Assembly: GCA_043727575.1 (NCBI GenBank)
Contig: JAYSYN010000244.1
Span: 2,932 to 66,931 of the forward strand
DNA: 64,000 bases
Reading direction: 5' to 3'
Source of the DNA: Fimbriiglobus sp.
GTDB taxonomy: Bacteria > Planctomycetota > Planctomycetia > Gemmatales > Gemmataceae
The position numbers and the translations under genes are program-made. The notes beneath the pieces are model-generated. The model made no database searches, was not told where the DNA came from, and saw nothing but the letters and a program-made list of their open reading frames with translations. The stretch's first letter is position 1, and the number at the start of each line of letters is the position of its first letter. Below, one piece after another: positions 7,766 to 60,982 of this stretch.

Positions 7766-7959
7766 GTCGGTACGGCGGGAATACCTTGACATTTCAAACG
7801 CGCTTCGCGTTCTTGCGGGCGGGTTCCTTTCACGCTCCAACTTGCAAAAATCGGTTGACATCGTTTCGACCCGTTCTAAGTATCATGCAGACGAAAGAAT
7901 TCATGCCGTGCCAATGACCGATTCCAGCCCGTGTGGAATCGGGTTACGAGGGAGCGAGA

Positions 7960-41444: not shown

Positions 41445-42296
41445 TCAGTCGGGGAGGGCGACGACCAAGCCGTCGTTATAGGTCCAGAGTCGGAATAGCA
41501 TTTCGGCGTCCACACCGACGCGCACGCCGCGGACCGAGCCGTCCGCATTCGCGCAGGGCATCGTGTTGGTGTGCGGGGTGCTCATGTAGTACTGCATGTT
41601 TTCCGGGTCGTAGTTATCGGGCACCACAAAACCCGGTTGCCGTTTGTGTTCCCAGTGATCGCCGACCGTGCTGCCGCCATCCCAGCAGGCCCAGTTGAAG
41701 TCTGTGCGCGTCTGACCGTACGCCGCCGGACTGCCGCCGTTGTAATACTTCGGGGCGACGCCCTTGTGCCCCAAGAACAGGGTGTTGGAAGTCCCGTCGG
41801 TGATGCCGACGATGGTCGGCGACCGGTGATTTGGTCCGCTCGCCAAGTAAGGCCCACCGAGAATGGTGTACCACCCCGAAGCCCCGCTGCGGAAACCCCA
41901 ATCGACGTGGTGTACGGCGCCATAATCGTCGAATGCGCCCGTGGCTCCCGGACGCCGGCTCGGGCAGAGAAAAGTCTTGATCGGTTTGACCGCTGCCGGC
42001 GACTGATTCCCCTGTTCGATGTACGGCAAAAGGGCGGAAAAGACCGTGAGCGGCTTTCCGGTCGGATTCTGACCACCATAGTCGTCGTCGATCGGCATCC
42101 GTCCATTCGCATCGTGGTAAGCGTGGCTGCCCAGCGCCAACTGTTTCAAGTTGTTCGTGCAGCTCATCCGCGCGGCGGCTTCACGGACCTTCTGGACCGC
42201 GGGCAGCAGAAGGCCGATAAGTATGGCGATGATGGCGATCACCACCAGCAGTTCGATCAGCGTGAACGCCGATCTCCGACGCGAGATTTTGGACAT
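41445..42296 (-). CDS. DUF1559 protein with prepilin-type N-terminus
   Basis: [62 protein letters not shown]...[13 protein letters not shown] trimmed to Met26 of the track ORF. Confidence 0.88.
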
Positions 42297-42449
42297 GGCG
42301 GGGACCTTTACGAATTTGGATGAATTGGAAGAATTGGAAGAATTGCAACGCCCTGCGACTGCCGACATCACGGGTGCGGACCTCGGCGATCAATTTTGAA
42401 GGCCATCCGCGCGTTCGCCGGAAGCCGCGCGGATGCCTCCAATGGATGC

Positions 42450-43487
42450 TCAGTCCAAAGGAAATCCCGCGACGCCGTCGTTGCGACAGTTGGCCCAGTG
42501 CCACGCGGCCGGGGTGACCGAGTCGCGTACGAAACGCACGCTCCCATCGCTCATGCAAGCGTTCACCCCGCCGATGTGCCGGCTGCGGGCATCGGCTTGC
42601 CAGTTCGGCCAGTTGTTCGGCAGGTTGTCGTTCGAACACCCCATCTTGAGCTTCCCGAGGCCGCTGTTGCCCACGCCCATCGACGTACGGATGTCGTTGC
42701 AGTTTTCGATATCGTCCGAGTATTCGTTGGCGTCGTTCGGGGCGGCGCAATCCCCGAATCCGACGGCTCCGGTCAAACTCGAACCGCCGACCCCCATCGC
42801 CCAAGCGCCGCGTCGGTCGCTCGAGGTCAGCCCGATTCGGAGTTCGTTGATCATCACCGTGTTCGACGTCCCGTCGGTGATGTCGGTGAATCTGGCACCC
42901 CAGTTGACACCCATGACCCCGCCCCGGAAACCGTCTTGTCCGGAACTCCCGATGCTCCAGTTGATGAACCCGCCCCCGGCATTCGCCCCATAATTGCCCC
43001 GCGCCCAGTTGCCGCCGTTGAGCGCGAAAGCAATCTCGCTCCCGGTGTCGCTCGGGCAGAGCATGCTGGGGACTTTCGTACCGCGGATGTTCCGCCAGTT
43101 TTGGTTGGTCCCATTCGACGGCATGAAATTGTTGATGTCCGTGGCAAACTGGTTGTATAGATTCCCCTGTTCGATTTGCGGGAGGACGAGAACGACCCAG
43201 TTCGGCCCGAAGCCGGGGGTCCGGTAGACGCTCAGCACGTTCGCCGTACCCGGTGCACCCGGGTTGTAAACCTGCACGGCGGGCGGCAGTGCACCGTTCG
43301 TGTCGTGGTAATTGTGGCACCCCAACCCGAGCTGCTTGAGATTGTTGCTGCACTTCATCCGCGCGGCGGCTTCGCGCACTTTCTGGACCGCCGGCAATAG
43401 CAGGCCAATGAGGATGGCGATGATCGCAATCACGACCAGAAGTTCGATCAGCGTGAACGCCGACCGTCGGGGTGAGACGGGACGCAT
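42450..43487 (-). CDS. DUF1559 protein with prepilin-type N-terminus
   Basis: [62 protein letters not shown]...[11 protein letters not shown]...HIGGVNACMSDGSVRFV. I trimmed to Met89 of the track ORF. Confidence 0.88.
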   Translation of the reverse strand: MRPVSPRRSAFTLIELLVVIAIIAILIGLLLPAVQKVREAAARMKCSNNLKQLGLGCHNYHDTNGALPPAVQVYNPGAPGTANVLSVYRTPGFGPNWVVLVLPQIEQGNLYNQFATDINNFMPSNGTNQNWRNIRGTKVPSMLCPSDTGSEIAFALNGGNWARGNYGANAGGGFINWSIGSSGQDGFRGGVMGVNWGARFTDITDGTSNTVMINELRIGLTSSDRRGAWAMGVGGSSLTGAVGFGDCAAPNDANEYSDDIENCNDIRTSMGVGNSGLGKLKMGCSNDNLPNNWPNWQADARSRHIGGVNACMSDGSVRFVRDSVTPAAWHWANCRNDGVAGFPLD

Positions 43488-43695
43488 GAGAAGTACCTCG
43501 ACCAAAACGGGAAGAAAGGATCCGTCAGATAGGGCGAGATCGGAATCTACCAGTCGCTCGCACCGCGTGCAAGCGCTAAACAAATACATTTCAAATCGCC
43601 GCCGGGTTTCCGGACATTCCGAGTTCCCCCGCGTCGACCGGCGTGCTAATCTACTAGAATAATAACGTGTGTCATTTCGCGGGTGAGGTTTCACC

Positions 43696-43995
43696 ATGAG
43701 CCGTATGAGTCGGGAATTCGGGTTGGTTCTGCTCGGGGCAGGCATCCTCACCGCCGGCTACTTCTTGGCGCCGTCGCCGGAAGACGAAATGGAAAAGAAA
43801 GCCGACGACCAAGCCGCGGACCGCACCGGGCACGACCGCACGCATCACCGCCACGGGATGGTGCCGCTGTTCTTGTTCATTCATAGCCCGGCTTACGCGG
43901 GGAATGCGTCGGGCCGACCGTCGGCCTACTCGCCGACCACGCGGGCCGGCGGCTTCGGTTCCGCCGGGCGGGCCTTCTCGGGCGGCGGTAGCTGA
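43696..43995 (+). CDS. small membrane protein, YgiB/YjfM (DUF1190)-like C-terminus
   Basis: It has an N-terminal TM (FGLVLLGAGILTAGYFL) and a C-terminal TRAGGFGSAGRAFSGGGS. That tail resembles the TRGGFG...GG tail I recall for E. coli YgiB. It lies directly upstream of a YgiC-like gene. Confidence 0.5.
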   Translation: MSRMSREFGLVLLGAGILTAGYFLAPSPEDEMEKKADDQAADRTGHDRTHHRHGMVPLFLFIHSPAYAGNASGRPSAYSPTTRAGGFGSAGRAFSGGGS

Positions 43996-46581: not shown

Positions 46582-47151
46582 TCACGCCATGATCCAGTCC
46601 ACAGACACATTCCAACCCGGTACTGCGGGCTCCGCATCGGCGAACTCTCCGGTCGCAAATGTGACGAACCGAGTCGGATCGGCGGCCGAATATTTCCGGA
46701 TCGTGCCGCTGTCCGGATCCACGTCCCAGACGACACGCGTGCCCGCTTCGAAGTAGTCCTCCCGCTTCGCGGCCATCTCCCGTTCTGCTGCTAGGCCGTA
46801 ATCCCCTTCGCTCCGGACTTCCACGGCGAAATCGGGCGGTGCCGCTACAAACTTCATCGGCTTCGCGGGCGCCGGGCCCGAATAGTACGAAGCATCCGGT
46901 GAAAAGGACTCCCGGCCCGATGACAATACCGGCACGGCGAAGCCCATCATATCGGTGAAGGCGAAACCGCGTCCGGGAACATCGCAATAGTCCGCCAGGC
47001 TGCGAAAAATTCGTCCCGCGACGATGTTCGGGCGGAATCCTGTTGCCATAGATTTCACGATTCTTCCACGGATCAATTCCGCTTTCTCGGGGATTCGGAG
47101 AAGATCGTCGATCGTGGTTTTGCGGACGGGAAGGGGAGTGGCGATGCTCAT
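46582..47151 (-). CDS. Uma2-family (DUF820) endonuclease
   Basis: TIDDLLRIPEKAELIRGRIV...PDASYY...PDFAVEVRSEGD...KREDYFEAGTRVVWDVDP matches the Uma2 PD-(D/E)xK-type pattern. I trimmed to MSIATPL. Confidence 0.8.
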   Translation of the reverse strand: MSIATPLPVRKTTIDDLLRIPEKAELIRGRIVKSMATGFRPNIVAGRIFRSLADYCDVPGRGFAFTDMMGFAVPVLSSGRESFSPDASYYSGPAPAKPMKFVAAPPDFAVEVRSEGDYGLAAEREMAAKREDYFEAGTRVVWDVDPDSGTIRKYSAADPTRFVTFATGEFADAEPAVPGWNVSVDWIMA

Positions 47152-47235
47152 GCGATATCTCCTTCTAACAGTTTGCATTGTACCGGTGATCGTCCCGCGA
47201 CTCAATTCCGCCTGCCCGACGGGTGTCCGTTTCTT

Positions 47236-49427: not shown

Positions 49428-49972
49428 GGTGACTCCTCCGACTGACCGGGCGAGGCGACTTTCGGGACCGCTTCCGGATCGATTCCGGAAGAGAGCCGGC
49501 CCTTCAAGTAACCTTTGGCCCGCGCCAAACGCGACATCACGGTACCGATCGGCAAATCCATCTGTTCGGCGATGTCGCGGTAACTGAAATCTTCAAAATA
49601 GAACAAGATTAAAGGCGTCCGGAACGTTTCATCCAATTCGTCGAGCGCCGCTTGCAAAGCCGCCGCGTCGATCTCCGGCGGCGCATCGGGCGCGGCCGAA
49701 GCCAAATCGCCGATCGATTCGAGCGGTACCAACTTCTTCCGCCGCTCGTCCCGAATGCGGTGAAGGTACCCGTTCCGCAGAATCCGGAATAGCCAAGGTT
49801 TGGCCCGCTCCGGATTTCGCAACTGTCCGAGCCGCGCAATCGCCTTGCCGAAGGCATCCTGCGTCAAATCCTCGGCATCGGAGGAATTCCCCGCCAACCG
49901 ATAGGCGTAGCGGTAGAGCGCGTCGTAATGAGCATCGATCAGATCGCGCACGCCGAGTTGGGGCGCAGTCAT
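49424..49972 (-). CDS. ECF-type RNA polymerase sigma factor
   Basis: Region 2 is LYRYAYRLAGNSSDAEDLTQDAFGKA...PWLFRILRNGY. Region 4 is FRTPLILFYFEDFSYRDIAEQMDLPIGTVMSRLARAK. Confidence 0.88.
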   Translation of the reverse strand: MTAPQLGVRDLIDAHYDALYRYAYRLAGNSSDAEDLTQDAFGKAIARLGQLRNPERAKPWLFRILRNGYLHRIRDERRKKLVPLESIGDLASAAPDAPPEIDAAALQAALDELDETFRTPLILFYFEDFSYRDIAEQMDLPIGTVMSRLARAKGYLKGRLSSGIDPEAVPKVASPGQSEESP

Positions 49973-50046
49973 GCCGCGGAACTCCTTAGTAATGGGAACC
50001 CGGAGAGAGTGGTTTTATTCCCGACGAATGGAAATTGTTCGCGGGA

Positions 50047-52680
50047 TCACCGTCGCACCGTCGTCGCCGTGACGCCCTCCTCGGTTTTTTGCAGTCGGAT
50101 CACGACCGGGAAATGGTCGGTAAATTCTTCTTGGTGGCTGACGAGGATGATCCGCTTGAGGTGCCTTTTGAGGCGGTTGAGCTCTTCGGCGGCCGCGCGC
50201 AAGCCTTCTTTGTCGAGCGACCCGAATCCCTCGTCGATGATGACGCATTCGAGGGGACGGGTTTGGCCCGAGGCAAATTGGCCGATGCCGAGAGCGAGGG
50301 CGAGAGCCACGCGGAATTTTTCGCTGCCCGACAGAAAAGCCACCGGCGTCGGTTCCGAAGATTCGGCCCGCCGTACCAACAGGACGAGCGCTTCGCCATC
50401 TCGTCGGGGCTCGCGGCTGAGTTCCAACGCCAAGTCGCCTTCGCTGAGTTTGTGCAAAGTGTCGGTGGCGAAGCGGACGATTTCCACTTCGGCGATGCGG
50501 ACCAATTCGCGCAACAGGCCGGCGTTGCCCAGGAGTCCGTTCAAAGCCGTGTGAATTTTGAGTGCGAATTCCGCCGCCGAAATCTCGGCCACGAGCACGG
50601 CGAAGGCGCGGCCTCGCCGTTGGAGATCGGCCGAAATGTCCCGCGCCGTCTGCCAGTTCGCCTCGGCGTTCAGGGCCGCTTTCTTGGCCGCATCGTGGGC
50701 GAGTTCGGCGTCGCGGATCGGTCTCCGGGCCGCCGGGGGAATGGCGTCGATCCGCGCGGCGAGTTCGCGCGATTGAACTTGCCACTCTTCTCGGCGGGCA
50801 CCGTCCCGCTGGAGGTCTTCGAATACTTCGACGATCTTTCCGCGCAGAAGCCCGGCGAAGTCGATCTCCAGCGCCGCCAGTTCCGCTGTGGTCGTGCCGT
50901 GGCGTCCGACCGGGATCCGTTCGAGCAGCAGGGTCCGGCCGACCCGGTCGGCGTCGAAGCCCTTCTCGGCGGTGGTGAAGTCGCGGGCCGAGTTGCTCGC
51001 CCGAGCCGCGGCGAGGTCCGATTCGACCGCGATCTCGGCGATCCGCACGTCGATCATTGCCAATCCGGCCCGCGCCGCCTCCGCCGCGCGTTCGGACGCC
51101 GCGGTGGATTCCACGAGTCCGGCGATCCGATTTTTCAACAGGCCCGCATCCGAAGTGCCGCCGAAGGATTCGAGGTCGAGGCGTTTGCCCGCGAGCTCCC
51201 GGACGAGCCCGGCGCATTCGCGGGCCTCGCCTTCGAGTTTGGCGCGGCGCGCCCCGCTTTCCTCGGCCGAGGACTTGGCCGCGGACAACGCGCGTTCGCG
51301 TTCCGCCCCGAGCGCGCGCATGGTCGCCACACCGGCTTCGGCGGCCGCGCGTTCCTTCCGGGCGTGCTCCTCCGTAACTTCTTGCCCGCAGGCGGAGCAA
51401 TTCACCCCGATGGTGAGGTCGTCGAACTTGGCCCGCGCTTCCAGGCAGCGAGCCAAGTCGCGGTCGCACCCGTCTTTGTCGACTCGGGCTTGGGTGAACG
51501 CCTCCACCGCGACGGGGTCGGCGGCGACGGCCGTCGCGGTGTCCCCCTCGAGGTCCGCCGGGAATGCCGCGTGCCGAGCGGCGAGTGTCGCCACCGACTC
51601 CGCCATGATCAGAAACTTGGATTGCCCGTCGTGCGCCCGGCGCCCGGCCTCAGCTTCGCGTTCGTGGAGGCCGCAGTCCGACTGCAGCGCGAGTTTCCGC
51701 TCCGCCGCCGCGGTCGCTTCCGCGTGCGTGCGGGCCTTCTCCCCTTCGGCTCGCAAGGTCGCAATTCTCAATCGTTCCAAGGCCGGTTCCGCGTCGATCA
51801 ACGAGATCCGGAGTGGGACGAATGGGCGCAGGTCCGGCAAAATGCCCGCCAGTTCGGAGTACGCCGCGAAGTCGGCGCGGATGCGCCCCGCCTCGGCGGA
51901 ACGCGCCGTCGCTTCCGCGATCTTGCATTCCAACGCGATTCGCATCGGTTCTGCGGTCACCCACACTTCGGATTGGTTCAACCCCGCGGCGGCGGTATCG
52001 CGGGCCTCCGCCGCCTGCTCTTTCAAAAGGGCGGCCGAAACTTCGGCGGCTTCCGCATCGAGGAGTTGCCCCGCCGTGACCTCGGCCATCGCGTTCCGTT
52101 TGTCTTGGAGCGATTTCAGTTCGCCCTTTCGGGCCTTCCATTCTTCCGCGATCCGCGCGGACAATCCTTCGAAGCGCTCCAGGCCCAGCACGCTCTTGAG
52201 GATCGTCATGCGCTCTTTGCCCGTGGCGACGAGGATGGCCTCCGCTTCGCCTTGCCGGAGCAGCACGGACGCTTGGAACGACGCGAAGTTCAATCCGATC
52301 GTATCGACGACCCAGTTTTTCACGGCCGAGACGCTGTCGACGCCGTCCTCGCATTTCCATTGCCCGCCCGTCATCCGTTCGACCGATTGCTTCGGCCCCG
52401 TCGACGACCGTGTCCGGCTGATCCGGTAATCGGCCCCGCCGAATTCGAATTCGAAGCTCACGGCAAAGCGATCCCGCCCGTGGTGGATCAGCGAGTCGGC
52501 GTTGTCGGCCCCGCCGCGGTGCTGGGCGAACAGGCAGTAGGTCATGGCGTCGAACACGGCCGACTTGCCGATGCCGTTGGGTCCGCCGAGCACCCAGAGC
52601 GGCTCGTCGTCCGCGAACTCGATCACGGTTTTGTCGCTGAAACTCAGGAAATTCTCGACGGTCACGCGCTTGGGGATCAT
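50047..52680 (-). CDS. sbcC: SbcC/Rad50-family SMC-like ATPase (877 aa)
   Basis: The N-terminus is MIPKRVTVENFLSFSD and Walker A is GGPNGIGKSAVFDAM. There is a long Ala/Glu-rich coiled coil with a central CxxC zinc hook (VNCSACGQE). The signature motif is LSGSEKFRVALALAL and Walker B is LECVIIDEGFGSLD. I trimmed to Met57 of the track ORF, whose ATG overlaps the sbcD stop. Confidence 0.88.
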   Translation of the reverse strand: MIPKRVTVENFLSFSDKTVIEFADDEPLWVLGGPNGIGKSAVFDAMTYCLFAQHRGGADNADSLIHHGRDRFAVSFEFEFGGADYRISRTRSSTGPKQSVERMTGGQWKCEDGVDSVSAVKNWVVDTIGLNFASFQASVLLRQGEAEAILVATGKERMTILKSVLGLERFEGLSARIAEEWKARKGELKSLQDKRNAMAEVTAGQLLDAEAAEVSAALLKEQAAEARDTAAAGLNQSEVWVTAEPMRIALECKIAEATARSAEAGRIRADFAAYSELAGILPDLRPFVPLRISLIDAEPALERLRIATLRAEGEKARTHAEATAAAERKLALQSDCGLHEREAEAGRRAHDGQSKFLIMAESVATLAARHAAFPADLEGDTATAVAADPVAVEAFTQARVDKDGCDRDLARCLEARAKFDDLTIGVNCSACGQEVTEEHARKERAAAEAGVATMRALGAERERALSAAKSSAEESGARRAKLEGEARECAGLVRELAGKRLDLESFGGTSDAGLLKNRIAGLVESTAASERAAEAARAGLAMIDVRIAEIAVESDLAAARASNSARDFTTAEKGFDADRVGRTLLLERIPVGRHGTTTAELAALEIDFAGLLRGKIVEVFEDLQRDGARREEWQVQSRELAARIDAIPPAARRPIRDAELAHDAAKKAALNAEANWQTARDISADLQRRGRAFAVLVAEISAAEFALKIHTALNGLLGNAGLLRELVRIAEVEIVRFATDTLHKLSEGDLALELSREPRRDGEALVLLVRRAESSEPTPVAFLSGSEKFRVALALALGIGQFASGQTRPLECVIIDEGFGSLDKEGLRAAAEELNRLKRHLKRIILVSHQEEFTDHFPVVIRLQKTEEGVTATTVRR

Positions 52681-53885
52681 GCGGTCCTCGATTCGGTCAA
52701 GAAGGTTTCGGCGAGGGCGAGGACCGCGGCCGCATCGGCATCGCCGGCGAGCCGGTCGCTCAAAAACGTCCGCACCGTGGAATCGAATCCGGCCCGGGAG
52801 TCGTAGCGCTGCGCTGGGGCCGCGGCGGTCGATTCCTCTGCGCACCAACGGATCTCGTGATACCGCGGGAAGGTCCGCTTGAGTTGCCGGGTGATTTCGT
52901 CCCGACTGGCCCCTTCGCCCATTCCTTTGATGAAAATGCGGACGATCGCGGTCTCGCGATCGGGGTATTTTTCGGTCAGCGCGGCGATGTCGTCGAGCGT
53001 CGGGTCCGTCAGTTCCACCGTGTGGAACGGCGTCGGCGGAATCGGCAATCGCACCGGATCGACCGAGTTCGCCCCGAGGATTTCCAGCAGCAGCACGCCG
53101 TGCTCGTCGTGCGTCTCGCCGAAATCGAGACGGTCCAAACTACCGGAGTAGCGCACGTGTGCGGCGCCGCCAAGCATCTGTGGCAAGTGGATATGACCGA
53201 GGGCAACGTAGCTCCACATCGGGTTGAGGTCGCCGAATTGAAATTGGTGATCTTTCGATGCATCCCACTTGGAATACGGTGCGTGGGGGGAGTGGCCCAC
53301 AACGTGCAAATGGGCCATCAAGACGGTCGGCAGGGTGAGGTCGATCTCACCGGATTTTTTCTGGATCCAGTTGGCGATGATCGATTGGACTCGCGTGTTA
53401 GCCGCTTCGGGGGTCGGGAAGTCGGCCGCCGAGACATTGAATCGGCTGCCGAACGGGTAAGGCACCAAAACGAACTGCACGCGTTGTCCGCCGCGATCCG
53501 GCAGTACGACCACCGCAGGTCCATTGGCTAGGTAGAGTCGGCCGCCGGCGAGGTGTGCTCCCGACTTCACCGGCACGGCCAACTTCATGCCAGTCAAGAA
53601 TGCGTCGATGCGCACGTCGCGGTCGTGGTTTCCCGTGATCGCGAGGATCGTGCCGCCGCGTTCGAAGAATGGTAGGAACGCTTCGTGCAAGTGTCGGAAC
53701 GCCGCGGTCATTTTCGGCACCGAGGCTTGCTCGCTGAAGAGATCGCCCGCGATCAGCAGCAACTCGGCGTCGTGTTCGACGCAGAGCGCCGCGACCCGTT
53801 CGACGCGAGTTTCAAGGTCCTCCGTGCGGTCGTTGCGGCCCAGTTCGTCGCACAGGTGCCAGTCGGCCGTGTGGATGATCTTCAT
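52677..53885 (-). CDS. sbcD: SbcD/Mre11-family metallophosphoesterase nuclease
   Basis: MKIIHTADWHL, LLLIAGDLF, ILAITGNHD and MAHLHV are calcineurin-like phosphoesterase motifs in Mre11 order. GGAG lies in the 8-nt gap after herA. Confidence 0.9.
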   Translation of the reverse strand: MKIIHTADWHLCDELGRNDRTEDLETRVERVAALCVEHDAELLLIAGDLFSEQASVPKMTAAFRHLHEAFLPFFERGGTILAITGNHDRDVRIDAFLTGMKLAVPVKSGAHLAGGRLYLANGPAVVVLPDRGGQRVQFVLVPYPFGSRFNVSAADFPTPEAANTRVQSIIANWIQKKSGEIDLTLPTVLMAHLHVVGHSPHAPYSKWDASKDHQFQFGDLNPMWSYVALGHIHLPQMLGGAAHVRYSGSLDRLDFGETHDEHGVLLLEILGANSVDPVRLPIPPTPFHTVELTDPTLDDIAALTEKYPDRETAIVRIFIKGMGEGASRDEITRQLKRTFPRYHEIRWCAEESTAAAPAQRYDSRAGFDSTVRTFLSDRLAGDADAAAVLALAETFLTESRTA

Positions 53886-53893
53886 GGCGCTCC

Positions 53894-55648
53894 TCAGAAA
53901 ATGTCCCGTTCGGGCACGGTGTAGGTTTTGGCCGCGGCGCCGGCTTCGGCCGGTTCGGCGTCGCCTTCGCTCAGGGCGAAGGGCGGGAAGGGGATCTTCG
54001 CGAGCATCGGCTCGCGGAAGCTCGGCTGGTAAAGCAGTTTCTCTTCCGGCAGCAATTGCGACGCCGCGTTGCGGGTTGAGTGACCGAGGAATTTCCACAC
54101 TTCGTGGTTGAGTTCGAGAGTGCCCGAGCGGCCGACGGCGCGCACGGCGGCGTTCTCGATCACGCGCGGCTTCACGAGGCTCGCCTGCTGCTGGGCTCCG
54201 AGCAGGATCACCCCTTGGCTGCGACCTTCGGCGGCGACCGTCTCCAATTGTTGCGTGATCGCGTCGGAGCTATCTTTGGGCGCGAAGCGGTTGAGTTCGT
54301 CGAGCGTGATGAGGTACTTCAACCCGATGACTTGCTTCGCGCTCTGCGTCGCCATGATCTGGTGGAAGACCGCCGCGACGACGAACCGCTGCAAGCTCGG
54401 CGTCCGGTGGATACCGTTGAGATCGATGACCAGCGGCGACTCGATGCCCGTCCGCGGGATCTTCAGCGGATGGCCTTTATTGTCTTCGCGGCGCAGAACC
54501 CCGTTGCCCTCCATCACGATGTATTTCAATCGGCGGAAGAAGCTGCCTTTCGTGGCCAAGACGAAGTCGCCGAAGAAGACTTTCTCGTTCTTGTTCAGTT
54601 TGAACCAGTCGAGCATTTCCTGAAAAGTCTGCGGGTAATCGTCGCCGCCGACTTTGAGTTTCGGATCGTCGGAGGAGCCGCCCGTCAAGTATTCTTCGAC
54701 TTCCCCGACGAGTCCGCCGAGGTTGGCGTTGCCGAGGTCGTCCCCCGCGAACAGGTACTTGAACAAGCCCCCTTCGATGATGTCCGACAGCGACCAACTG
54801 TACGGGGCCACGTCGCTGCTGCGGCCGCCGGTCGCCACCGGAGTCGTCAAACCCCTCTCTTGGGGTGCGAAGAATTGCGGTTTCACGAACGGCCGCGGGT
54901 CGTCGACACCGAGCGCGCGCCAATCCCCGCGATTGGCCGATTCGTTCTTGCGGAACTCCGTGTTCCAGCGGTCGATGAAGAACAAGTCGGAGTTCTTCAC
55001 GTTGAAGATCACCGGCACCAGTTGCAATCGCTTGACGTCACCGGGCTTCTCCCGTTTCTGTTTCGCCGCTTCCCGCAGCAAGAGCCAGTTCACCGTCAGC
55101 AGCAGTGTCGATTTGGTGCCCAGCCCGGCGATGCCGTTGACGTTCAAGTGCCCGCCGTTTTTCCCCAAGAGGAAGTCCAAATCGACGCTCGCGGTCCCGG
55201 CGAACGCTTCGCCGCCGTTCCGCAGCAACCCCACGGCGAGTTTGTGCCCCATGCGGTCCACCCCGTACCCTTTGGCCGCTTCCTCCGGCGTCGCCAGAAA
55301 GACTTCGCTCTCTTCGGTGGGGGGCGTGTGGGCGACCGGGTCGGTCCGCAAGATTGCCACCTCGGCGAAGGTGACCCCTTCGGATTCGAATGGCGGTTGC
55401 TCGCCGGTGCGGCCGTCGAACCGCGCGGCCTCTTCGCCGATGTCCTTCTGCCGGCTGCGGCGGTACACCTCTTGGACGATGCCGACGAACGACACGGTCC
55501 GCGTGCCGACGGTCGATTTGGTGACGACGATCTGCGTGCGCTCCACGCTCTTGGCCCGATCGACCCAAAAGTAGAACACGCCGCTGGTCGACTCGTGCTC
55601 GGCCGGGCAGGCCACGCGGCCCAATGACTCGCGGGGGGATTCGCTCAC
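53894..55648 (-). CDS. herA: HerA-like (FtsK/HerA superfamily, DUF87) ATPase, 584 aa
   Basis: The N-terminal barrel-like GVFYFWVDRAKSVERTQIVVTKSTVG..VSFVGIVQEV is followed by the P-loop region NGIAGLGTKSTLLL and Walker B YLITLDELNRFAP. The GTG start overlaps the nurA stop (GTGA at 55645-55648). The upstream 283 codons of the track ORF overlap nurA and are rejected. Confidence 0.72.
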   Translation of the reverse strand: MSESPRESLGRVACPAEHESTSGVFYFWVDRAKSVERTQIVVTKSTVGTRTVSFVGIVQEVYRRSRQKDIGEEAARFDGRTGEQPPFESEGVTFAEVAILRTDPVAHTPPTEESEVFLATPEEAAKGYGVDRMGHKLAVGLLRNGGEAFAGTASVDLDFLLGKNGGHLNVNGIAGLGTKSTLLLTVNWLLLREAAKQKREKPGDVKRLQLVPVIFNVKNSDLFFIDRWNTEFRKNESANRGDWRALGVDDPRPFVKPQFFAPQERGLTTPVATGGRSSDVAPYSWSLSDIIEGGLFKYLFAGDDLGNANLGGLVGEVEEYLTGGSSDDPKLKVGGDDYPQTFQEMLDWFKLNKNEKVFFGDFVLATKGSFFRRLKYIVMEGNGVLRREDNKGHPLKIPRTGIESPLVIDLNGIHRTPSLQRFVVAAVFHQIMATQSAKQVIGLKYLITLDELNRFAPKDSSDAITQQLETVAAEGRSQGVILLGAQQQASLVKPRVIENAAVRAVGRSGTLELNHEVWKFLGHSTRNAASQLLPEEKLLYQPSFREPMLAKIPFPPFALSEGDAEPAEAGAAAKTYTVPERDIF

Positions 55649-56739
55649 AACTCGCCTCCGCGAAAGAGCCCCGCCGTCCGGTAGAGCCGATTGGCCAACA
55701 CGGGGAAGGGGGTGAACAAGGGTTTGAGACAATCTTCGGCGCGGACGATCGGGTCGAGGGACACGGGCATGCGGGCGTAGCTTTGGCTGCGGCAGCGGGC
55801 GTCGATCAACCAGCGCGAGAGGCGGTTGACGAATCCGAAGTCGCCGCGGAACTGGACTTCGAACTGGTCCCAAGGCACCTCGGCGCGGACGTAGCCCCAG
55901 TTCGGCGCGAGCTGCGAACCGCCGCTGAGTTTCAAGAACCATGTGGCGACGGCGATCCGGCCTTCGTTCTTGCCGTCGACCCCGGCAATCTTGAACACGG
56001 GCGTGCGTTGGCCGGGTCGCAGGTTCAACAGCGTCCGCCAGCCGGCGTCGTGCAAGTAGGCGGCTTCTTGCATCTTGGCGATACCGATGAGCAGCGGGGA
56101 ATCGGCCGGGGGGTTCCCGGTGACGCGGCTCAGCGGGCCGTCGACCAGCGTCGGCACACCGCGGTCCACGGCCAGGGCCAACCGTTCCAGATTCTTCATC
56201 TCTTCGACGGCGCGGACGCGGGCTTGGGATCGCATCGCCTCGTAGTCGAACGGGCTGAACTCGGTGAGGTCCGGGAGATTCGCGGGCAAAATGCGGAGCT
56301 TCAATTCCGGCGTGTTGGCCAAGTCGTGTGCGAAGGCTTCGACCTCTTCCCACGGAAACGGATCGGCGACGAAACTGAGCACGCGGTCGACGGCGGCGAA
56401 CTCGCGCTCGAAACGCCGGCCGACACTGCGGAGGGCCACGGCGCCGACCTCCGAAAGCAACAGGGGAATGGGCCAGCCGAGTTCGGTTTTCACGCACAGC
56501 ACCGGATGACCCGTGTGAGAGCCGTCGATGAAGCGGATGGGGTACTCGCCCGGCCGCGCCGGCGCCTCGGCTACGGAAACCGGCGCCCAGTCCGCTTCGG
56601 CCATTTCCACCGCGCGCTCGACGGCCGGCTTGGACTTCTCATCCCCCTCCGGTACCAACGGGATGTTCGGCTGCGGCGGGGTGGCGCCGACGGCCGCGGC
56701 CCCGTACTTCTTCAGAAAGGGGCTCGGCTCATTCCGCAT
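55645..56739 (-). CDS. nurA: NurA-like nuclease (364 aa)
   Basis: IRFIDGSHTG (DGS motif), a later PTLVDGPLSR, and an IGIAK block occur in the order I recall for NurA domains. The gene sits directly upstream of herA. This assignment rests on motifs and context only. Confidence 0.6.
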   Translation of the reverse strand: MRNEPSPFLKKYGAAAVGATPPQPNIPLVPEGDEKSKPAVERAVEMAEADWAPVSVAEAPARPGEYPIRFIDGSHTGHPVLCVKTELGWPIPLLLSEVGAVALRSVGRRFEREFAAVDRVLSFVADPFPWEEVEAFAHDLANTPELKLRILPANLPDLTEFSPFDYEAMRSQARVRAVEEMKNLERLALAVDRGVPTLVDGPLSRVTGNPPADSPLLIGIAKMQEAAYLHDAGWRTLLNLRPGQRTPVFKIAGVDGKNEGRIAVATWFLKLSGGSQLAPNWGYVRAEVPWDQFEVQFRGDFGFVNRLSRWLIDARCRSQSYARMPVSLDPIVRAEDCLKPLFTPFPVLANRLYRTAGLFRGGEL

Positions 56740-57325
56740 CGGTCACCCCCAAGTTTTTGAGGCGGTAGCGGATCGCTTCGCGGCTCACGAGCAGTTCCGC
56801 CGCCAGCCGGTAGGCCAGTACCCCGGGCGGGCAGACGCCGTGCTCGGATCTCAGTTCTTCGGCCCGCGCCCGCAGCACGGCCTCGGGCATCAACAATTCC
56901 GCGGCGAAGCGATTGGCTTCGCGTTCGAGAACATCGGTCGCTTCGTCCGTCTCGAGCATCGTCTTCTGGCTATCGGCCCGGTAGCGGCCCATGCTCTCCC
57001 GGTGGAGGACCGCGTGGCCGAGTTCGTGCGCCGCGCTGAAGCGCCGCCTCGGCAGAATGTCGTCGGCGTTCACGAACGCATGACCGATCCGCCCGGCGAA
57101 ATACAAGAAGCCCGCGAGCGGTTCCGCCGGATCATCGAACGGTTCGACCGTGGAGCCTTCGGCTTGCAAATGTTCGATCACGCGACCGCAGTTGAGCCCC
57201 GACAGCGCGACGTGCGAGAGGCCGAACTCTTGGAAGAAACGATTCAAAGGCACCGGCCCGCGCATAGCCGGGTCGACGGGCAATCCGAGTTCCGTCCGGA
57301 GGCGGGCGATGGCATCGGCGATCAC
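56729..57325 (-). CDS. ImmA/IrrE-family zinc metallopeptidase (DUF955)
   Basis: RRRFSAAHELGHAVLH (HExxH) is followed by EREANRFAAELLMP, the family hallmark. The GTG start overlaps the upstream stop (GTGA at 57322-57325). Confidence 0.85.
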   Translation of the reverse strand: MIADAIARLRTELGLPVDPAMRGPVPLNRFFQEFGLSHVALSGLNCGRVIEHLQAEGSTVEPFDDPAEPLAGFLYFAGRIGHAFVNADDILPRRRFSAAHELGHAVLHRESMGRYRADSQKTMLETDEATDVLEREANRFAAELLMPEAVLRARAEELRSEHGVCPPGVLAYRLAAELLVSREAIRYRLKNLGVTDAE

Positions 57326-57858
57326 TTCGGCGCCTCCGGTTTGGACCCGCGGCGGGCGGCGAGTTGATATTCCACGGCCGAGGCTCGACGGCGTTCCAGC
57401 TTCAATGCCGCCCGCTGAAAGACGGGCCGGTACTCGACGGGGACCGCACCGAACCGCGCCTCCAACCAGGCGGTGAGCTTCGATAGTCCGAGGTTGTCCG
57501 GGAGCGCTTCCGACGAGCTTTGCAAGGCGGCGTTGAACGCGTGCGATTCCGCCGCCAATCCATCGGGCGTGTGTCGGAACAATTCCCGCGCCACATCGCC
57601 GACGGTGATCGGACCGCCGTCCGGCCGGACAATCGCTGCGCTTTTCAAATGCGTTTCCACCGCCGAACCGACGGTCCGCGCCGCCGCCCGCTCTTCGCGC
57701 TCGGCGTTGTCGGCGTCGAGGGCGGCTTCGATTTCGAACAGGGCCCGTTCGAGTTCGGGATCGAACGTGGCGGCTTCCCACATCCGGTCGAGGGCCGGAA
57801 AATCGCCGGCGTCCAGTGCCGCGAGGTACGCTTCTGTCATTCGGTCGAGGTCGTTCAC
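57322..57858 (-). CDS. hypothetical soluble protein in anti-sigma position (172-178 aa)
   Basis: It lies immediately after an ECF sigma gene. Either GTG 57858 overlaps the sigma stop (GTGA), or ATG 57840 is the start. The N-terminus MTEAYLAALDAGDF resembles the ..AYLDGEL.. opening of many anti-sigma factors. It has no TM and no zf-HC2. Confidence 0.45.
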   Translation of the reverse strand: MNDLDRMTEAYLAALDAGDFPALDRMWEAATFDPELERALFEIEAALDADNAEREERAAARTVGSAVETHLKSAAIVRPDGGPITVGDVARELFRHTPDGLAAESHAFNAALQSSSEALPDNLGLSKLTAWLEARFGAVPVEYRPVFQRAALKLERRRASAVEYQLAARRGSKPEAPK

Positions 57859-58439
57859 GATGGCCCCCCGCGCAGGGTCGGCGACAACAATTGGAACAAT
57901 TCCTTCTTGGCCCGGTAGAGTTTGACGCGGACGTTCGCCGCCGTCAGCCCGACGACGCCGGCGACTTCCTCGGACTTCAACCCGTCGAAGAACGTCAGTT
58001 CGAGGATTTGCCGGTTCAACGGGTCGAGCAAACCGAGAGCCCTGCGGACCGCGGTTCGATCCGCCTCGCGGATGAATCGATCTTCCACCGCCTCGGTTCG
58101 ATCCGGCAGCGCATCGACCGAGTGATCGGCCCGGTGCTTTCGGACTTTCGCGAAAGCTCGCTTGGCGATGTTCCGGACGAACCCGTGGATCCAACCCGCG
58201 ACACCGCCGTTGCGCGTGGGATCGAAACTCGACGCTTTGGCCAACGCCGCGGCTTGCGCTTCGGCCGCAAAATCCTCGGCGTCGCGTTCCAGTCCCGACC
58301 GGGTCGGGTAAGTTTTCACTCTGCCGAGATAGATCCGGGTACTGGTCAAAATTTTGCGGACCGTGTCGGGATCGCCGAGTGCTGTCCGCACGGGGCACGG
58401 CTCCGCCAATGTCGGTGGCGGGTCGAGGAGATGGGCCAT
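57855..58439 (-). CDS. ECF-type RNA polymerase sigma factor
   Basis: Region 2 is DAEDFAAEAQAAALAK...GWIHGFVRNIAKRAF. Region 4 is LDPLNRQILELTFFDGLKSEEVAGVVGLTAANVRVKLYRAKKEL. Confidence 0.85.
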   Translation of the reverse strand: MAHLLDPPPTLAEPCPVRTALGDPDTVRKILTSTRIYLGRVKTYPTRSGLERDAEDFAAEAQAAALAKASSFDPTRNGGVAGWIHGFVRNIAKRAFAKVRKHRADHSVDALPDRTEAVEDRFIREADRTAVRRALGLLDPLNRQILELTFFDGLKSEEVAGVVGLTAANVRVKLYRAKKELFQLLSPTLRGGPS

Positions 58440-58542
58440 GGAGGGAACACCCGGGCGAACGTGGGGGGCGATCAGCGTTCTATTCCCATTCGCGCCGGGT
58501 GTGTTACGAATAATTGTGGAGAAGTGAGTTTTGGGTCGCGGG

Positions 58543-60006
58543 TCACCCCTTGATGACGCCGATGGGCCGCATGCGGGCGACCTTCTTGCTCAATCCCGCG
58601 TCGTGGACTACTTCCACGACGTGATCGACGTTCTTGTACGCCTTCGGTTGCTCTTCGGCCAAGCCCTGCCGGCTGCTGCTCATCGCGATCACGCCGCGCG
58701 CTTCCAGCTCTTTGTCGATCCGGCGGCCGACAGCGTCCTTCACCGCGGCGGTGCGGCTCATCGCGCGTCCGGCCCCGTGGCAGGTCGTGCCGAAAGTGCG
58801 TTCCATGCTGCCCGGCAGGCCCACGAGGACCCACGACGCCCGCCCCATGTCGCCGGGGATAATCACGGGTTGACCGGTTTTTTGGAACGCGGCCGGCAAC
58901 TCCGGGTGCCCGGCCGGGAAGGCCCGCGTGGCCCCCTTGCGGTGGACCCAGACCTTCTTGAGCTTCCCTTCGACCGTATGCTCTTCGAGCTTCGCGATGT
59001 TGTGGGCGACATCGTAAAGCAGGTCCATGCCGAGGTCGGTCCACGGGCGACCGAAGACGCCGGCGAAGACTTCGCGCGTTTGTTGCATGAGCAACTGCCG
59101 GTTCGTGAAACCGAAGTTCGCGGCGGCCCGCATCGCGGCGATGTACTTCTTCCCTTCGGGAGAATCGACCGGGGCGCAGGCCAACTGGCGGTCCGGCAGC
59201 ACGATGCCGTACTTGCCCGGCGCATCGCGAAACGCGGCGAGCGCGTCGTCGCAGACTTGGTACCCGAGGCCGCGCGATCCGGAGTGGATCATCACGCAAA
59301 TTTGGTTCAATTCCAGCCCGAAAGCTTCCGCGACTTCCGCGTCGCAGACTTGATCGACGACCTGCACTTCGAGGAAGTGGTTGCCGCTACCCAGGGTGCC
59401 GCACTGATCGCTGCCGCGCTTCACGGCGTGATCGCTGACTTGCTCGGGGTCGCCGCCGTCGATGTGCCCGTTGGCCTCGGTGTGCAGTAAATCTTGGGGC
59501 ACGCCGAGATCGCGGTCGATGGCGAACGCCACGCCCTCGCCCATGAGCTTGCGCGTCTCTTTCGAGTCAAACTTATACTTGCCGCTGCGCCCGACGCCGG
59601 CGGGGACACTGTAAAAGAGCGCCTTGATAAGTTCGCGCAAATGCGGCTTCACGTCGTCGAGGAACAGATTCGTCTTCACCAAACGAACGCCGCAGTTGAT
59701 GTCGTAGCCGACGCCGCCGGGGGAAATGACGCCGCCCTCGGCCGGGTCGGTGGCGCAGACGCCGCCGATGCAGAATCCGTAGCCCCAGTGGATGTCCGGC
59801 ATGGCGAAGCTGCCGACCTGAATCCCCGGCAGCGTGGCGACGTTCGCCACTTGATCGAGGGCTTGGTCGTTGCGGATCGATTCCATGAGCCGCGCGTTGG
59901 CGAAGACGATCCCGTCGACGCGCATGTCGCTGCGGTACGACTTCGGAATCCGGTAGGAGTTCGCATCGATCGATTCGAGCGGCCCGCTGTATATGCCTTT
60001 GGCCAT
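58543..60006 (-). CDS. rtcB: RNA-splicing ligase RtcB
   Basis: PDIHWGYGFCIGGV, GGVGYDINCGVR, GTLGSGNHFLE, IHSGSRGLG and CHGAGR are canonical RtcB motifs. I trimmed to MAKGIYSGPLE (Met80 of the track ORF). Confidence 0.95.
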   Translation of the reverse strand: MAKGIYSGPLESIDANSYRIPKSYRSDMRVDGIVFANARLMESIRNDQALDQVANVATLPGIQVGSFAMPDIHWGYGFCIGGVCATDPAEGGVISPGGVGYDINCGVRLVKTNLFLDDVKPHLRELIKALFYSVPAGVGRSGKYKFDSKETRKLMGEGVAFAIDRDLGVPQDLLHTEANGHIDGGDPEQVSDHAVKRGSDQCGTLGSGNHFLEVQVVDQVCDAEVAEAFGLELNQICVMIHSGSRGLGYQVCDDALAAFRDAPGKYGIVLPDRQLACAPVDSPEGKKYIAAMRAAANFGFTNRQLLMQQTREVFAGVFGRPWTDLGMDLLYDVAHNIAKLEEHTVEGKLKKVWVHRKGATRAFPAGHPELPAAFQKTGQPVIIPGDMGRASWVLVGLPGSMERTFGTTCHGAGRAMSRTAAVKDAVGRRIDKELEARGVIAMSSSRQGLAEEQPKAYKNVDHVVEVVHDAGLSKKVARMRPIGVIKG

Positions 60007-60020
60007 GGTGAATCCCCATA

Positions 60021-60443
60021 TCAAATATCGACGATGACTTCCGCGAGGAAGCCGCCGTCGGTTTCTTCCAATTTCAAACCGTGGTAGGTGATCGCTTTCA
60101 CTTCCCGACTGAGCAGATGCCGCACAGGGTCGAAAGGTTCGCCCGAAATCGTCGCAGTCAATCCGGTCGCCGTCACGGCGACCTCGAACCGACACCACAG
60201 CATCCGCGCTTCGTCGGAGCGGTGCAGCAATTCCCGCAGCCAATCGAACAACAGGTATTCCCGGTCCGTCCCCGCAATGGCGAGTATTTGCGATTCGGTC
60301 GGTCGCACGGCCCCGGGCTCATCGACCATACACGCGAGCAGGCACGCCCCCGCCTCGGCGAAGAGGGTGTTCAAGTCCGCCGCGCGGATGCGCAACCCGA
60401 TGTCGGCGGTGTGGTCGAACAACTCGTGCATACGGTGAATCAT
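60021..60443 (-). CDS. archease (RtcB activator)
   Basis: MHELFDHTADIGLRIRA...EVKAITYHGLKLEE is the archease pattern. It is about 140 aa and lies 14 nt upstream of rtcB. The start could be 60443 or 60431. Confidence 0.85.
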   Translation of the reverse strand: MIHRMHELFDHTADIGLRIRAADLNTLFAEAGACLLACMVDEPGAVRPTESQILAIAGTDREYLLFDWLRELLHRSDEARMLWCRFEVAVTATGLTATISGEPFDPVRHLLSREVKAITYHGLKLEETDGGFLAEVIVDI

Positions 60444-60496
60444 GGCCCAGCGGAGAGACTTCCGCAATGGTGGAACTTTCCGGCTACACTCACCCC

Positions 60497-60982
60497 ATGG
60501 CCGACACCCCGATCGCAGCCGTGTACGACGAACTCCGAGCGCTGGCCGAGCACCGGCTCGCCGACGACCCGGCTGGGTGGTCGCTCGGGGCGACGGCCCT
60601 CGTCCACGAGGCCTATTTGAAGCTCCACGGCAAGGCGTTGTGGGAATCGGACCGGCACTATTTCCACGCCGCGGCGCAGGCGATGCGGCGGATCCTCGTG
60701 GACCGCGCCCGCGCCGCAAAAGCGGACAAACGCGGCGGCGAACGTTCCCGAGAACCGCTCTCCGACATCGCCGGTTCCCCGGTCGATTATGTCGCACTCG
60801 ACGAAGCTTTGACTCTGTTCGCATCCGAGGATCCGGAGGCTGCCGGATTGGTTCAACTCAGGTTTTTCGCCGGACGTACGCGGGATGAATCGGCGTCGCT
60901 GTTGGGCATATCCCCACGCCAGGCGGACCGACTATGGGCATTCGCCAAAGCCTGGCTATTTCAACGACTTTCGGAAATCTGA
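60497..60982 (+). CDS. ECF sigma factor of the kinase-associated planctomycete type (TIGR02999-like)
   Basis: YDELRALAEHRL...ATALVHEAYLKL...W.DR.HYFHAAAQAMRRILVDRARAAKADKRGG...LVQLRFFAGRTRDESASLLGISPRQADRLW. I chose Met11 of the track ORF. Confidence 0.85.
   Translation: MADTPIAAVYDELRALAEHRLADDPAGWSLGATALVHEAYLKLHGKALWESDRHYFHAAAQAMRRILVDRARAAKADKRGGERSREPLSDIAGSPVDYVALDEALTLFASEDPEAAGLVQLRFFAGRTRDESASLLGISPRQADRLWAFAKAWLFQRLSEI

Follow-up and report, generated by a model that had tools for sequence, protein, structure and literature searches.

What does a small soluble protein of no recognised family do when its gene lies between that of an extracytoplasmic function (ECF) sigma factor and that of an ImmA/IrrE-type (M78) peptidase? 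The question is raised by a locus of Fimbriiglobus sp. (Planctomycetota, Gemmataceae) situated in a stretch of 64,000 nucleotides of contig JAYSYN010000244.1 (assembly GCA_043727575.1, positions 2,932 to 66,931), called the window below. Listing of the open reading frames (ORFs) and inspection of the start codons disclose seven tightly packed genes on the minus strand, in the order sigma–X–M78–NurA-like–HerA–SbcD–SbcC, X being the protein in question. The M78 peptidases IrrE, ImmA and CapP cleave a regulator encoded by a neighbouring gene after DNA damage. An earlier note on this DNA proposed that the peptidase cleaves X to release the sigma factor, which would then drive the genes downstream. 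This interpretation as a whole is partly supported. The sigma–X–M78 trio may constitute a self-contained proteolytic sigma/anti-sigma switch for an operon of the Mre11–Rad50–HerA–NurA type, a reading for which, judged from sequence, the cases for and against are about evenly balanced. The three coupled genes described at 56729-58439 are present there, on the minus strand and with GTGA overlaps, and the cassette is laid out as follows.

58481..58507, minus strand: predicted ECF-type promoter, with GTAAC at 58507..58503, a spacer of 17 nucleotides (nt) and a -10-like GAATA at 58485..58481
57855..58439, minus strand: ECF-type sigma factor, 194 amino acids, isoelectric point (pI) 9.8
57322..57858, minus strand: X, 178 amino acids from a GTG codon sharing the sequence GTGA with the sigma stop codon
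56729..57325, minus strand: M78 peptidase, 198 amino acids, its GTG start overlapping the X stop codon as GTGA
55645..56739, minus strand: NurA-like nuclease, 364 amino acids, overlapping the M78 gene by 11 nt
53894..55648, minus strand: HerA-type ATPase/translocase, 584 amino acids, its start overlapping the stop codon of the NurA-like gene as GTGA
52677..53885, minus strand: SbcD/Mre11-like phosphoesterase, 402 amino acids, Metallophos match at 7e-11
50047..52680, minus strand: SbcC/Rad50-like SMC ATPase, 877 amino acids, its start overlapping the stop codon of sbcD as ATGA

The sigma factor matches TIGR02937 (sigma70-ECF) over residues 36-181 (E = 3e-19) and Sigma70_r4_2 (3e-12), while its match to the r2 model is weak (1.8e-4) and under the Pfam cut-off. 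Conserved blocks are found in sigma2 (FDP...W..G) and sigma4 (RVRL.RA), and with these two regions alone in about 190 amino acids the protein belongs by its profile matches to the ECF (group 4) sigma factors. According to the ORF listing, no small gene other than X separates it from the peptidase gene. The peptidase is recognised by PF06114 (E = 1e-21), by capP as its best PADLOC model (6e-22) and by the structure of CapP in the PDB (7t5t, 2e-5), the last alignment being restricted to residues 92-149, the catalytic region. Its HELGH sequence occupies residues 100-104 (57028..57014) and is followed by EREAN at residue 134, so that the HExxH motif and downstream glutamate expected of an M78 enzyme can be assigned. 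With 198 amino acids it resembles the short ImmA type in size.

The genes downstream are those named in the earlier note. HerA is identified by D. radiodurans HerA (PDB 7f6d_B, E = 3.4e-46), and SbcC by AAA_23 (2e-17), SMC_N (7e-14) and SbcC_Walker_B, together with a hook-like CSAC motif at residue 428. For the NurA-like protein Pfam gives no match; a profile built from 17 orthologues has as its two top PDB matches NurA (7f6d_H, E = 0.028) and the NurA-like TM1739 (1zup), and an invariant FIDGS motif is present. With this E-value, two top matches that are both of NurA type and the IDGS motif, the assignment to NurA is weak, though consistent. Four activities in one operon would thus make up the cargo expected of HerA–NurA/Mre11–Rad50 end resection. 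PADLOC 2.0 returns scattered single-protein matches only, namely capP, mad3/LmuB (for SbcC) and HerA at 3e-3; it gives none for sigma, X, the NurA-like protein or SbcD, and no one described defence system is matched.

Is this arrangement more than a local accident? About 40 cassette loci were retrieved from Gemmataceae, cyanobacteria and other bacteria, with GC contents from 37% to 73%. Gene calling and tblastn show the seven-gene order wherever the contig is long enough, also around distant X homologues. The sigma, X and M78 genes never occur apart, and the 4-nt overlaps from sigma to X and from X to M78 are kept in most loci. The arrangement is not due to chance, since order and overlaps recur in this way. 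X lies directly downstream of the sigma gene and is coupled to it by overlap, as the gene of an anti-sigma factor would be; that X fills this slot, as first seen in the window, is borne out across loci. A species-level scan, using one genome per species, yields 29 loci, all from metagenome-assembled genomes of Gemmataceae/Gemmatales (Fimbriiglobus, Limnoglobus, Gemmata, Urbifossiella) except one labelled Alcaligenaceae. The latter (CAYUHJ010000095.1, locus L023 in the numbering used here), binned as 'uncultured Alcaligenaceae bacterium', carries a cassette of Gemmataceae type with an X 51% identical to that of the window, and its label probably reflects mis-binning instead of a true presence in Betaproteobacteria. 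Among cultured organisms, the cyanobacterium Mastigocoleus testarum has the cassette next to photosystem genes, its X (WP_027843494.1) being annotated 'hypothetical protein'.

What does the sigma factor read? An ECF-type promoter upstream of 58439, the search for which had been suggested as a check, was found. Its sequence in the window is GTAACACACCCGGCGCGAATGGGAATA (58507..58481) and begins 68 nt ahead of the sigma start codon; the promoter pattern has this single match in the whole window. In about 28 of 30 loci GT(A/C)AC-N17-(C/G)AA(T/G)(A/T) stands upstream of sigma, its pentamer 56-68 nt before the start codon in otherwise unconserved surroundings, and in distant loci (GC 37% to 62%) the relaxed form GTAA(G/T)-N17-18-CAAT is seen. 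An AAC-type -35 element, a short -10 element and a fixed spacing give it the form of an autoregulated ECF promoter, as which it is predicted here. A pattern search through all loci detects second copies in eight of them, all located in herA–sbcD spacers of at least 41 nt. These copies of GT(A/C)AC-N17-CAA are listed by locus.

L003, 6998-7040: GTAAC at both promoters
L005, 7187-7213: GTAAC at both promoters
L011, 5504-5530: GTAAC at both promoters
L020, 8221-8247: GTAAC at both promoters
L022, 13937-13963: GTAAC at both promoters
L027, herA–sbcD spacer: GTCAC at both promoters
L032, herA–sbcD spacer: GTCAC at both promoters
L034, herA–sbcD spacer: GTCAC at both promoters

Three of the four loci with GTCAC (L027, L032 and L034) form one clade of sigma factors, and the fourth (L031) is a singleton. 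Both promoters thus change together and in step with the sigma lineage, which is strong evidence that the sigma factor of the cassette reads them. A matching change in the recognition helix of sigma4 was also looked for; this helix reads RQRF, RMRF or RTRI in the GTCAC loci, and Q or T occurs with GTAAC in L023 and L016, so that the co-variation is suggestive, not clean, and is not relied on. In the window the herA–sbcD spacer measures 9 nt and contains no internal copy, as in several other loci, and one promoter should therefore serve all seven genes. Neither a promoter of sigma-70 type nor a terminator-like site on the minus strand is found in a scan of the operon (49800-58800). Collectively, the promoter upstream of sigma and the matching copy ahead of sbcD indicate that the sigma factor very probably drives the NurA-HerA-SbcDC genes, as had been supposed.

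Just 3' of the -10-like element, the sequence AGAACGCTGATCGCCC (58460-58480), which contains GATC, is conserved in the closer Gemmataceae (L011, L013-L016) beyond the needs of the promoter motif. It could be a discriminator, an element of the 5' untranslated region or a binding site.

What, then, is X? It is a soluble, acidic protein (pI about 5) of 178 amino acids, or of 172 if the in-frame ATG at 57840 is the start, both starts of the range first given being visible. It has no transmembrane-like segment (maximal hydropathy over 19 amino acids, 0.79), and its sequence shows no Cys/His zinc motif. Pfam, NCBIfam and PADLOC contain nothing that matches the window protein at E<=1; a profile search of the PDB gives nothing relevant, the MazG match at 6e-4 standing alone and looking compositional; Foldseek against the PDB gives no match with E<1. 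Moreover, 31 diverse members compared with Pfam at E<=10 show no helix-turn-helix (HTH), DNA-binding or anti-sigma family. The absence of a recognisable XRE HTH, already remarked in the window, is confirmed by all five of these searches. The idea that X is an ordinary HTH repressor or an enzyme is rejected on these zero matches, for the window protein and 31 diverse homologues alike, and that of a canonical anti-sigma domain is unsupported by the same Pfam, NCBIfam, PADLOC, PDB profile and Foldseek searches. Among relatives of X, a word-indexed search collects 66 clusters, all of 178-185 amino acids, unnamed and without Pfam domains; an exhaustive profile search collects 415 representatives (50% clustering) at E<=1e-3, 197 of them at E<=1e-10, and each one inspected has either no name or the annotation 'hypothetical protein'.

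The AlphaFold2 model of X is all-helical and in two parts, with a mean predicted local distance difference test (pLDDT) score of 82.5; residues 71-85, a linker, are disordered. Three segments of the gene matter for what follows.

57634..57858, minus strand: X N-domain, residues 1-75, with predicted helices 3-17, 20-31 and 34-70
57325..57609, minus strand: X C-domain, residues 84-178, with predicted helices 86-95, 103-112, 125-136 and 143-171
57352..57363, minus strand: LAAR motif, residues 166-169, candidate cleavage site

In 183 aligned members the most conserved positions are Y11, A14, D19, A30, L36, T85, V89, P120, A167 and A168. The first five, in the N-domain, are conserved in at least 93% of members, and T85, V89 and P120 belong to the C-domain. 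The opening of X had been called anti-sigma-like: its conservation (Y11, A14, D19) is real, but it matches no anti-sigma profile. The pattern 'Y..AL..GD' is a common helix-hairpin pattern, spanned by a weak PDB match to the uncharacterised 3cnx. The net charge of the N-domain is -11, and across family members it lies between -14 and -7. Near the other end, L166, A167 and A168 are found in 80%, 92% and 98% of the 183 members, with an arginine within the next one or two residues, so that the motif takes the form L-A-A-(R or A/T-R). This LAA-R is the best-conserved short motif of the whole sigma–X–M78 module, and as a cut site for the M78 peptidase it is something that we only infer.

With which partners do the two halves of X evolve? 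Pairwise-identity matrices of 26 cassettes were compared by partial Mantel tests, each with the remaining cassette proteins of the test as controls. Mean pairwise identity is 0.33 for sigma, the fastest-evolving gene of the cassette, 0.43 for the X N-domain, 0.60 for the X C-domain, 0.63 for M78, 0.64 for NurA and 0.68 for HerA. The partial correlations are as follows.

sigma and X N-domain: partial r 0.67, p 5e-4
X C-domain and M78: partial r 0.46, p 5e-4
sigma and X C-domain: partial r -0.03, p 0.67
sigma and M78: partial r -0.09, p 0.94
X N-domain and X C-domain: partial r 0.14, p 0.03

These values imply that the halves of X track different partners more than each other, despite being encoded by one gene. 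An example is provided by locus L014 (7294-15692), compared with window positions 50047-58439: identity is 0.75 for sigma and 0.81 for the X N-domain, 0.47 for the X C-domain and 0.69 for M78, and 0.96 for both NurA and HerA (92-96% over NurA, HerA and SbcC; 76% for SbcD). This mosaic suggests that patchwise recombination swapped the X C-domain together with the peptidase. For the links of X with its partners, such co-variation of sequences is supportive rather than conclusive.

The link of X with the peptidase can also be covalent. Proteins in which X and M78 are naturally fused, 427-460 amino acids long, make up more than 30 clusters, and in the fusion loci examined the sigma gene still precedes the fusion gene. 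Fusion genes were located at 707-2011 in L035, 840-2198 in L036 and 10001-11335 in L040 (proteins P0157, P0186 and P0235); in L040, a contig of 1.86 Mb, the fusion gene is followed by NurA-HerA-SbcD-SbcC. An AlphaFold2 model of one fusion (P0157), computed from an alignment of 72 rows, has a pLDDT of 88.3 and a predicted template modelling (pTM) score of 0.80. It shows the N-module of X as four helices, and its peptidase half matches PprI/IrrE (8sln_A, an ssDNA complex, and 3dti; ssDNA, single-stranded DNA) with probability 1.0. Five other homologues of odd length (P0088, P0105, P0112, P0143, P0206) look like frameshifted translations and were ignored as fusions.

How might these parts work together? 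An autoregulated sigma factor needs an antagonist, and X is the sole protein of the cassette without an assigned role, which points to X as the antagonist. In the proposed switch, the sigma factor would read its own promoter, GTAAC-N17-GAATA (58507..58481), in a positive feedback loop and, in relatives, also the second copy ahead of sbcD. X would be a two-module adaptor, whose acidic N-domain keeps the basic sigma factor inactive and whose C-domain docks on the M78 peptidase and so presents X to it. A cytoplasmic signal would lead the peptidase to cut X. Most plausibly, by analogy, this signal would be ssDNA or DNA damage, arising from genotoxic stress, phage or foreign DNA; these are what IrrE/PprI and CapP respond to, and hence the obvious candidate. 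The released sigma factor would then induce all seven genes of the operon. The opposite charges of the X N-domain (-11) and the sigma factor (pI 9.8) and their co-variation (partial r 0.67) count indirectly in favour of their binding; the X–M78 fusions, the confident model of one of them (pTM 0.80) and the co-variation of the X C-domain with M78 likewise count indirectly in favour of cleavage of X. For the place of the cut it is tempting to propose LAA|R; X would then, speculatively, end in -LAA at its C-terminus, which resembles a ClpXP degron. In DdrO, too, an arginine follows the cut (L106|R107), and cleaved RseA exposes a -VAA end. CapP cuts CapH at F82|R83, that is before an arginine (10.1101/2022.04.27.489752), and a C-terminal AA degron has been noted for AntA (PMC8999054).

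Several points weigh against this switch. X has no anti-sigma domain of the zf-HC2/RskA type detectable in the Pfam, PDB profile and Foldseek searches, and the peptidase lacks a GAF domain or other sensor as well as the ssDNA groove of IrrE and CapP. The LAAR motif sits within a predicted helix, 10 residues from the C-terminus of X, so that a cut there alone would not part the domains. Finally, the co-variation could in part stem from physical linkage and from a hotspot of recombination located in the linker of X.

Which other readings compete with the switch? The one that survives best makes X a non-canonical DNA-binding repressor at the operon promoter, an analogue of CapH, DdrO and ImmR that is cleaved by the M78 peptidase, with the sigma factor merely as an extra activator, as in the CBASS systems with sigma, CapH and CapP taken up below. 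M78 peptidases characteristically cut a neighbouring repressor, the X–M78 fusions parallel known CapH–CapP fusions, Foldseek gives very weak homeodomain-like matches for the X C-domain (E 4-9) and distant members of the family have basic C-terminal tails. The reading is nevertheless unlikely, set against the 31 diverse members without an HTH profile at E<=10, the lack of any significant fold match and the acidity of X (pI about 5, N-domain -11). In addition, a palindrome search detects no conserved inverted repeat around the promoter, the best arms being those expected of shuffled sequence, and co-variation of the X N-domain with sigma is not what would be expected of a DNA-binding domain.

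A second reading dispenses with any switch: sigma, X and M78 would be independent accessory genes, merely co-transcribed within a mobile NurA-HerA-SbcCD defence or repair cassette, X and M78 forming for example a toxin–antitoxin-like or anti-phage sensing pair that has no hold over sigma activity. This agrees with the patchy distribution of the cassette and its varying neighbours (AbiEii and type I CRISPR-Cas in L001, DUF6884 in L003 and L040), and with the occurrence of M78 domains in antitoxin-like proteins (the RmrA and spr1629 matches). It has little probability in view of a trio unbroken in about 40 loci with its 4-nt overlaps kept in most, of a co-variation between sigma and the X N-domain that is strong after controlling for other genes, and of the promoter evidence, which links sigma to the cargo genes.

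Weakest, and very improbable, is the reading of X as a scaffold by which the peptidase reaches the sigma factor, itself the substrate as an N-terminally trimmed pro-sigma or degraded for shut-off: it draws on the conserved sigma N-terminus (PPP...DP-VRAAL-xDP, with P16, A20 and L21 at 86-92%) and on the separate co-variation of X with sigma and peptidase, against an extension of only about 20 amino acids ahead of the first sigma2 helix, a best-conserved short motif (LAA-R) that lies in X and not in sigma, and the fact that we know of no M78-family enzyme that cleaves a sigma factor. ECF sigma factors controlled by their own proteolysis, such as AntA by ClpXP, are a further point on its side (PMC8999054).

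Coming back to the proteolytic switch, its fullest form would make X the founder of a class of soluble anti-sigma factors that are cut at LAA|R by an operon-encoded ImmA/IrrE-type peptidase. The trio would in that case sense DNA damage or phage in the cytoplasm and switch on a horizontally mobile Mre11–Rad50–HerA–NurA machine of Planctomycetota, Cyanobacteria and other phyla. This is put forward tentatively, as a proposal that leans somewhat towards the doubtful side.

The surroundings of the cassette are diverse. In most other loci, as in the window, it has ordinary chromosomal neighbours. Those of the window encode RtcB, archease, a PF07638 sigma factor, Uma2 and DUF1559 proteins, at the following positions.

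58543-60243, minus strand: RtcB RNA ligase (PF01139, 3e-168), directly upstream of the operon on the same strand, its true start probably lying some 130 codons into the ORF as listed
60021-60500, minus strand: archease, on the same strand and with RtcB immediately upstream of the operon; the pair ends 36 nt ahead of the -35 element of the operon
60467-60982, plus strand: second, unrelated ECF sigma factor of the Planctomycete-specific PF07638 type (1e-38), divergent from archease
46582-47205, minus strand: Uma2-family putative endonuclease
41445-43751, minus strand: two type IV pilin-like (DUF1559/N-methyl) genes of a kind typical of Planctomycetes; with the Uma2 gene, in keeping with the Gemmataceae origin to which the related loci point

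In the metagenomic locus L001, the cassette is located between an AbiEii/DUF6088 toxin–antitoxin pair and Cas6/Cas3 of a type I CRISPR-Cas system, in a setting that resembles a defence island (flanking defence genes at 7233-8872 and 18805-20555). RuvC, RadC and LigA flank it in L037. Such differences between flanks imply that the cassette moves as a unit. A DUF6884 gene stands just upstream of sigma in L003 (1634-2092, opposite strand) and L040 (8398-9147, same strand); found in two unrelated carriers, it could be accessory to the cassette or be there by coincidence.

How new would such a switch be? The earlier note regarded ECF control by an ImmA-class protease as undescribed. For the mechanism, a literature search brought up no description of the seven-gene cassette or of an ECF plus M78 mechanism, beyond one remark on sigma, CapH and CapP. 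The claim is nevertheless tempered as regards the co-occurrence of the genes, since Lau et al. report 24 CBASS (cyclic oligonucleotide-based antiphage signalling) systems that have capH and capP 'alongside a predicted sigma70-family sigma factor' (10.1101/2022.04.27.489752). In these systems the HTH substrate is present and the mechanism is not given (10.1101/2022.04.27.489752). If the proposed switch is true, ImmA/IrrE/CapP proteolytic de-repression would be joined with ECF sigma/anti-sigma control, a pairing not previously shown, and X would define a new protein family. For soluble anti-sigma factors a 2022 review on non-canonical ECF regulation knows conformational change, partner switching and a mechanosensing complex only (PMC8999054), to which a fourth release mechanism would be added. 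The cassette as such would be a bacterial counterpart, self-regulated and spread horizontally, of the archaeal HerA–NurA–Mre11–Rad50 end-resection system. Both double-strand-break repair and anti-phage defence were considered as its role; Gemmata is reported to be radiation tolerant. As the module is compact (promoter, sigma factor, inhibitor and protease) and self-contained and has natural orthogonal GTAAC and GTCAC variants, it is testable in a heterologous host and may serve as a synthetic switch.

Compared with IrrE(PprI)/DdrO of Deinococcus, ImmA/ImmR of the Bacillus element ICEBs1 and CapP/CapH of CBASS and further immune operons, the peptidase belongs to the same family (PF06114, HExxH), and its gene likewise adjoins that of a small partner, where the regulated operon begins. 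Partner and peptidase can be fused, as in CapH–CapP, the cargo is related to DNA damage or defence, and at its candidate site X has, like CapH, a conserved arginine after a hydrophobic or small residue. Unlike the partners in these systems, X is acidic and without HTH, and the module is accordingly not CapH/CapP, ImmR/ImmA or DdrO/IrrE, because their defining HTH substrate is absent. Unlike IrrE and CapP, the peptidase is a minimal enzyme of 198 amino acids, without GAF domain or the cysteine-switch loop of CapP. An ECF sigma factor is here an obligatory third component, and the output would be release of sigma, not de-repression. The CBASS operons with sigma, CapH and CapP share a sigma70-family factor dedicated to the nucleic-acid-targeting operon beside it and the co-occurrence of a sigma gene and an M78 peptidase, but retain the HTH repressor CapH.

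Compared with RseA–DegS/RseP–ClpXP, RsiW and RsiV, where release is by regulated proteolysis, and with the soluble RsrA, ChrR and NepR/PhyR, the cassette shares a small autoregulated sigma factor whose downstream partner is co-transcribed and translationally coupled and, like ECF sigma/anti-sigma systems, an 'AAC'-containing -35 element; the hypothetical -LAA end of cut X would parallel the -VAA end of RseA. X differs from known anti-sigma factors in lacking a recognisable anti-sigma domain, zinc motif or membrane span, and release would differ from that of the RseA/RsiW type in relying on a dedicated, operon-encoded cytoplasmic M78 enzyme. DdvS/DdvA of Myxococcus xanthus, an ECF sigma factor and a transmembrane anti-sigma factor, control a CBASS-CRISPR defence island (PMC11506125). 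There too an ECF sigma factor is dedicated to an adjacent nucleic-acid-targeting operon, but DdvA is a membrane protein and an M78 peptidase is not involved. Finally, the cargo has the same four activities as the archaeal herA-mre11-rad50-nurA operon and, for HerA–NurA, as Deinococcus and Thermus: HerA is clearly homologous to that of D. radiodurans (7f6d, 3e-46), and IDGS is retained in the NurA-like protein, whose kinship to NurA is very remote (E = 0.028). Unlike the archaeal operon, the cassette is bacterial, horizontally spread and equipped with a sigma-based regulator of its own. It combines two known kinds of regulation around a new protein family, X.

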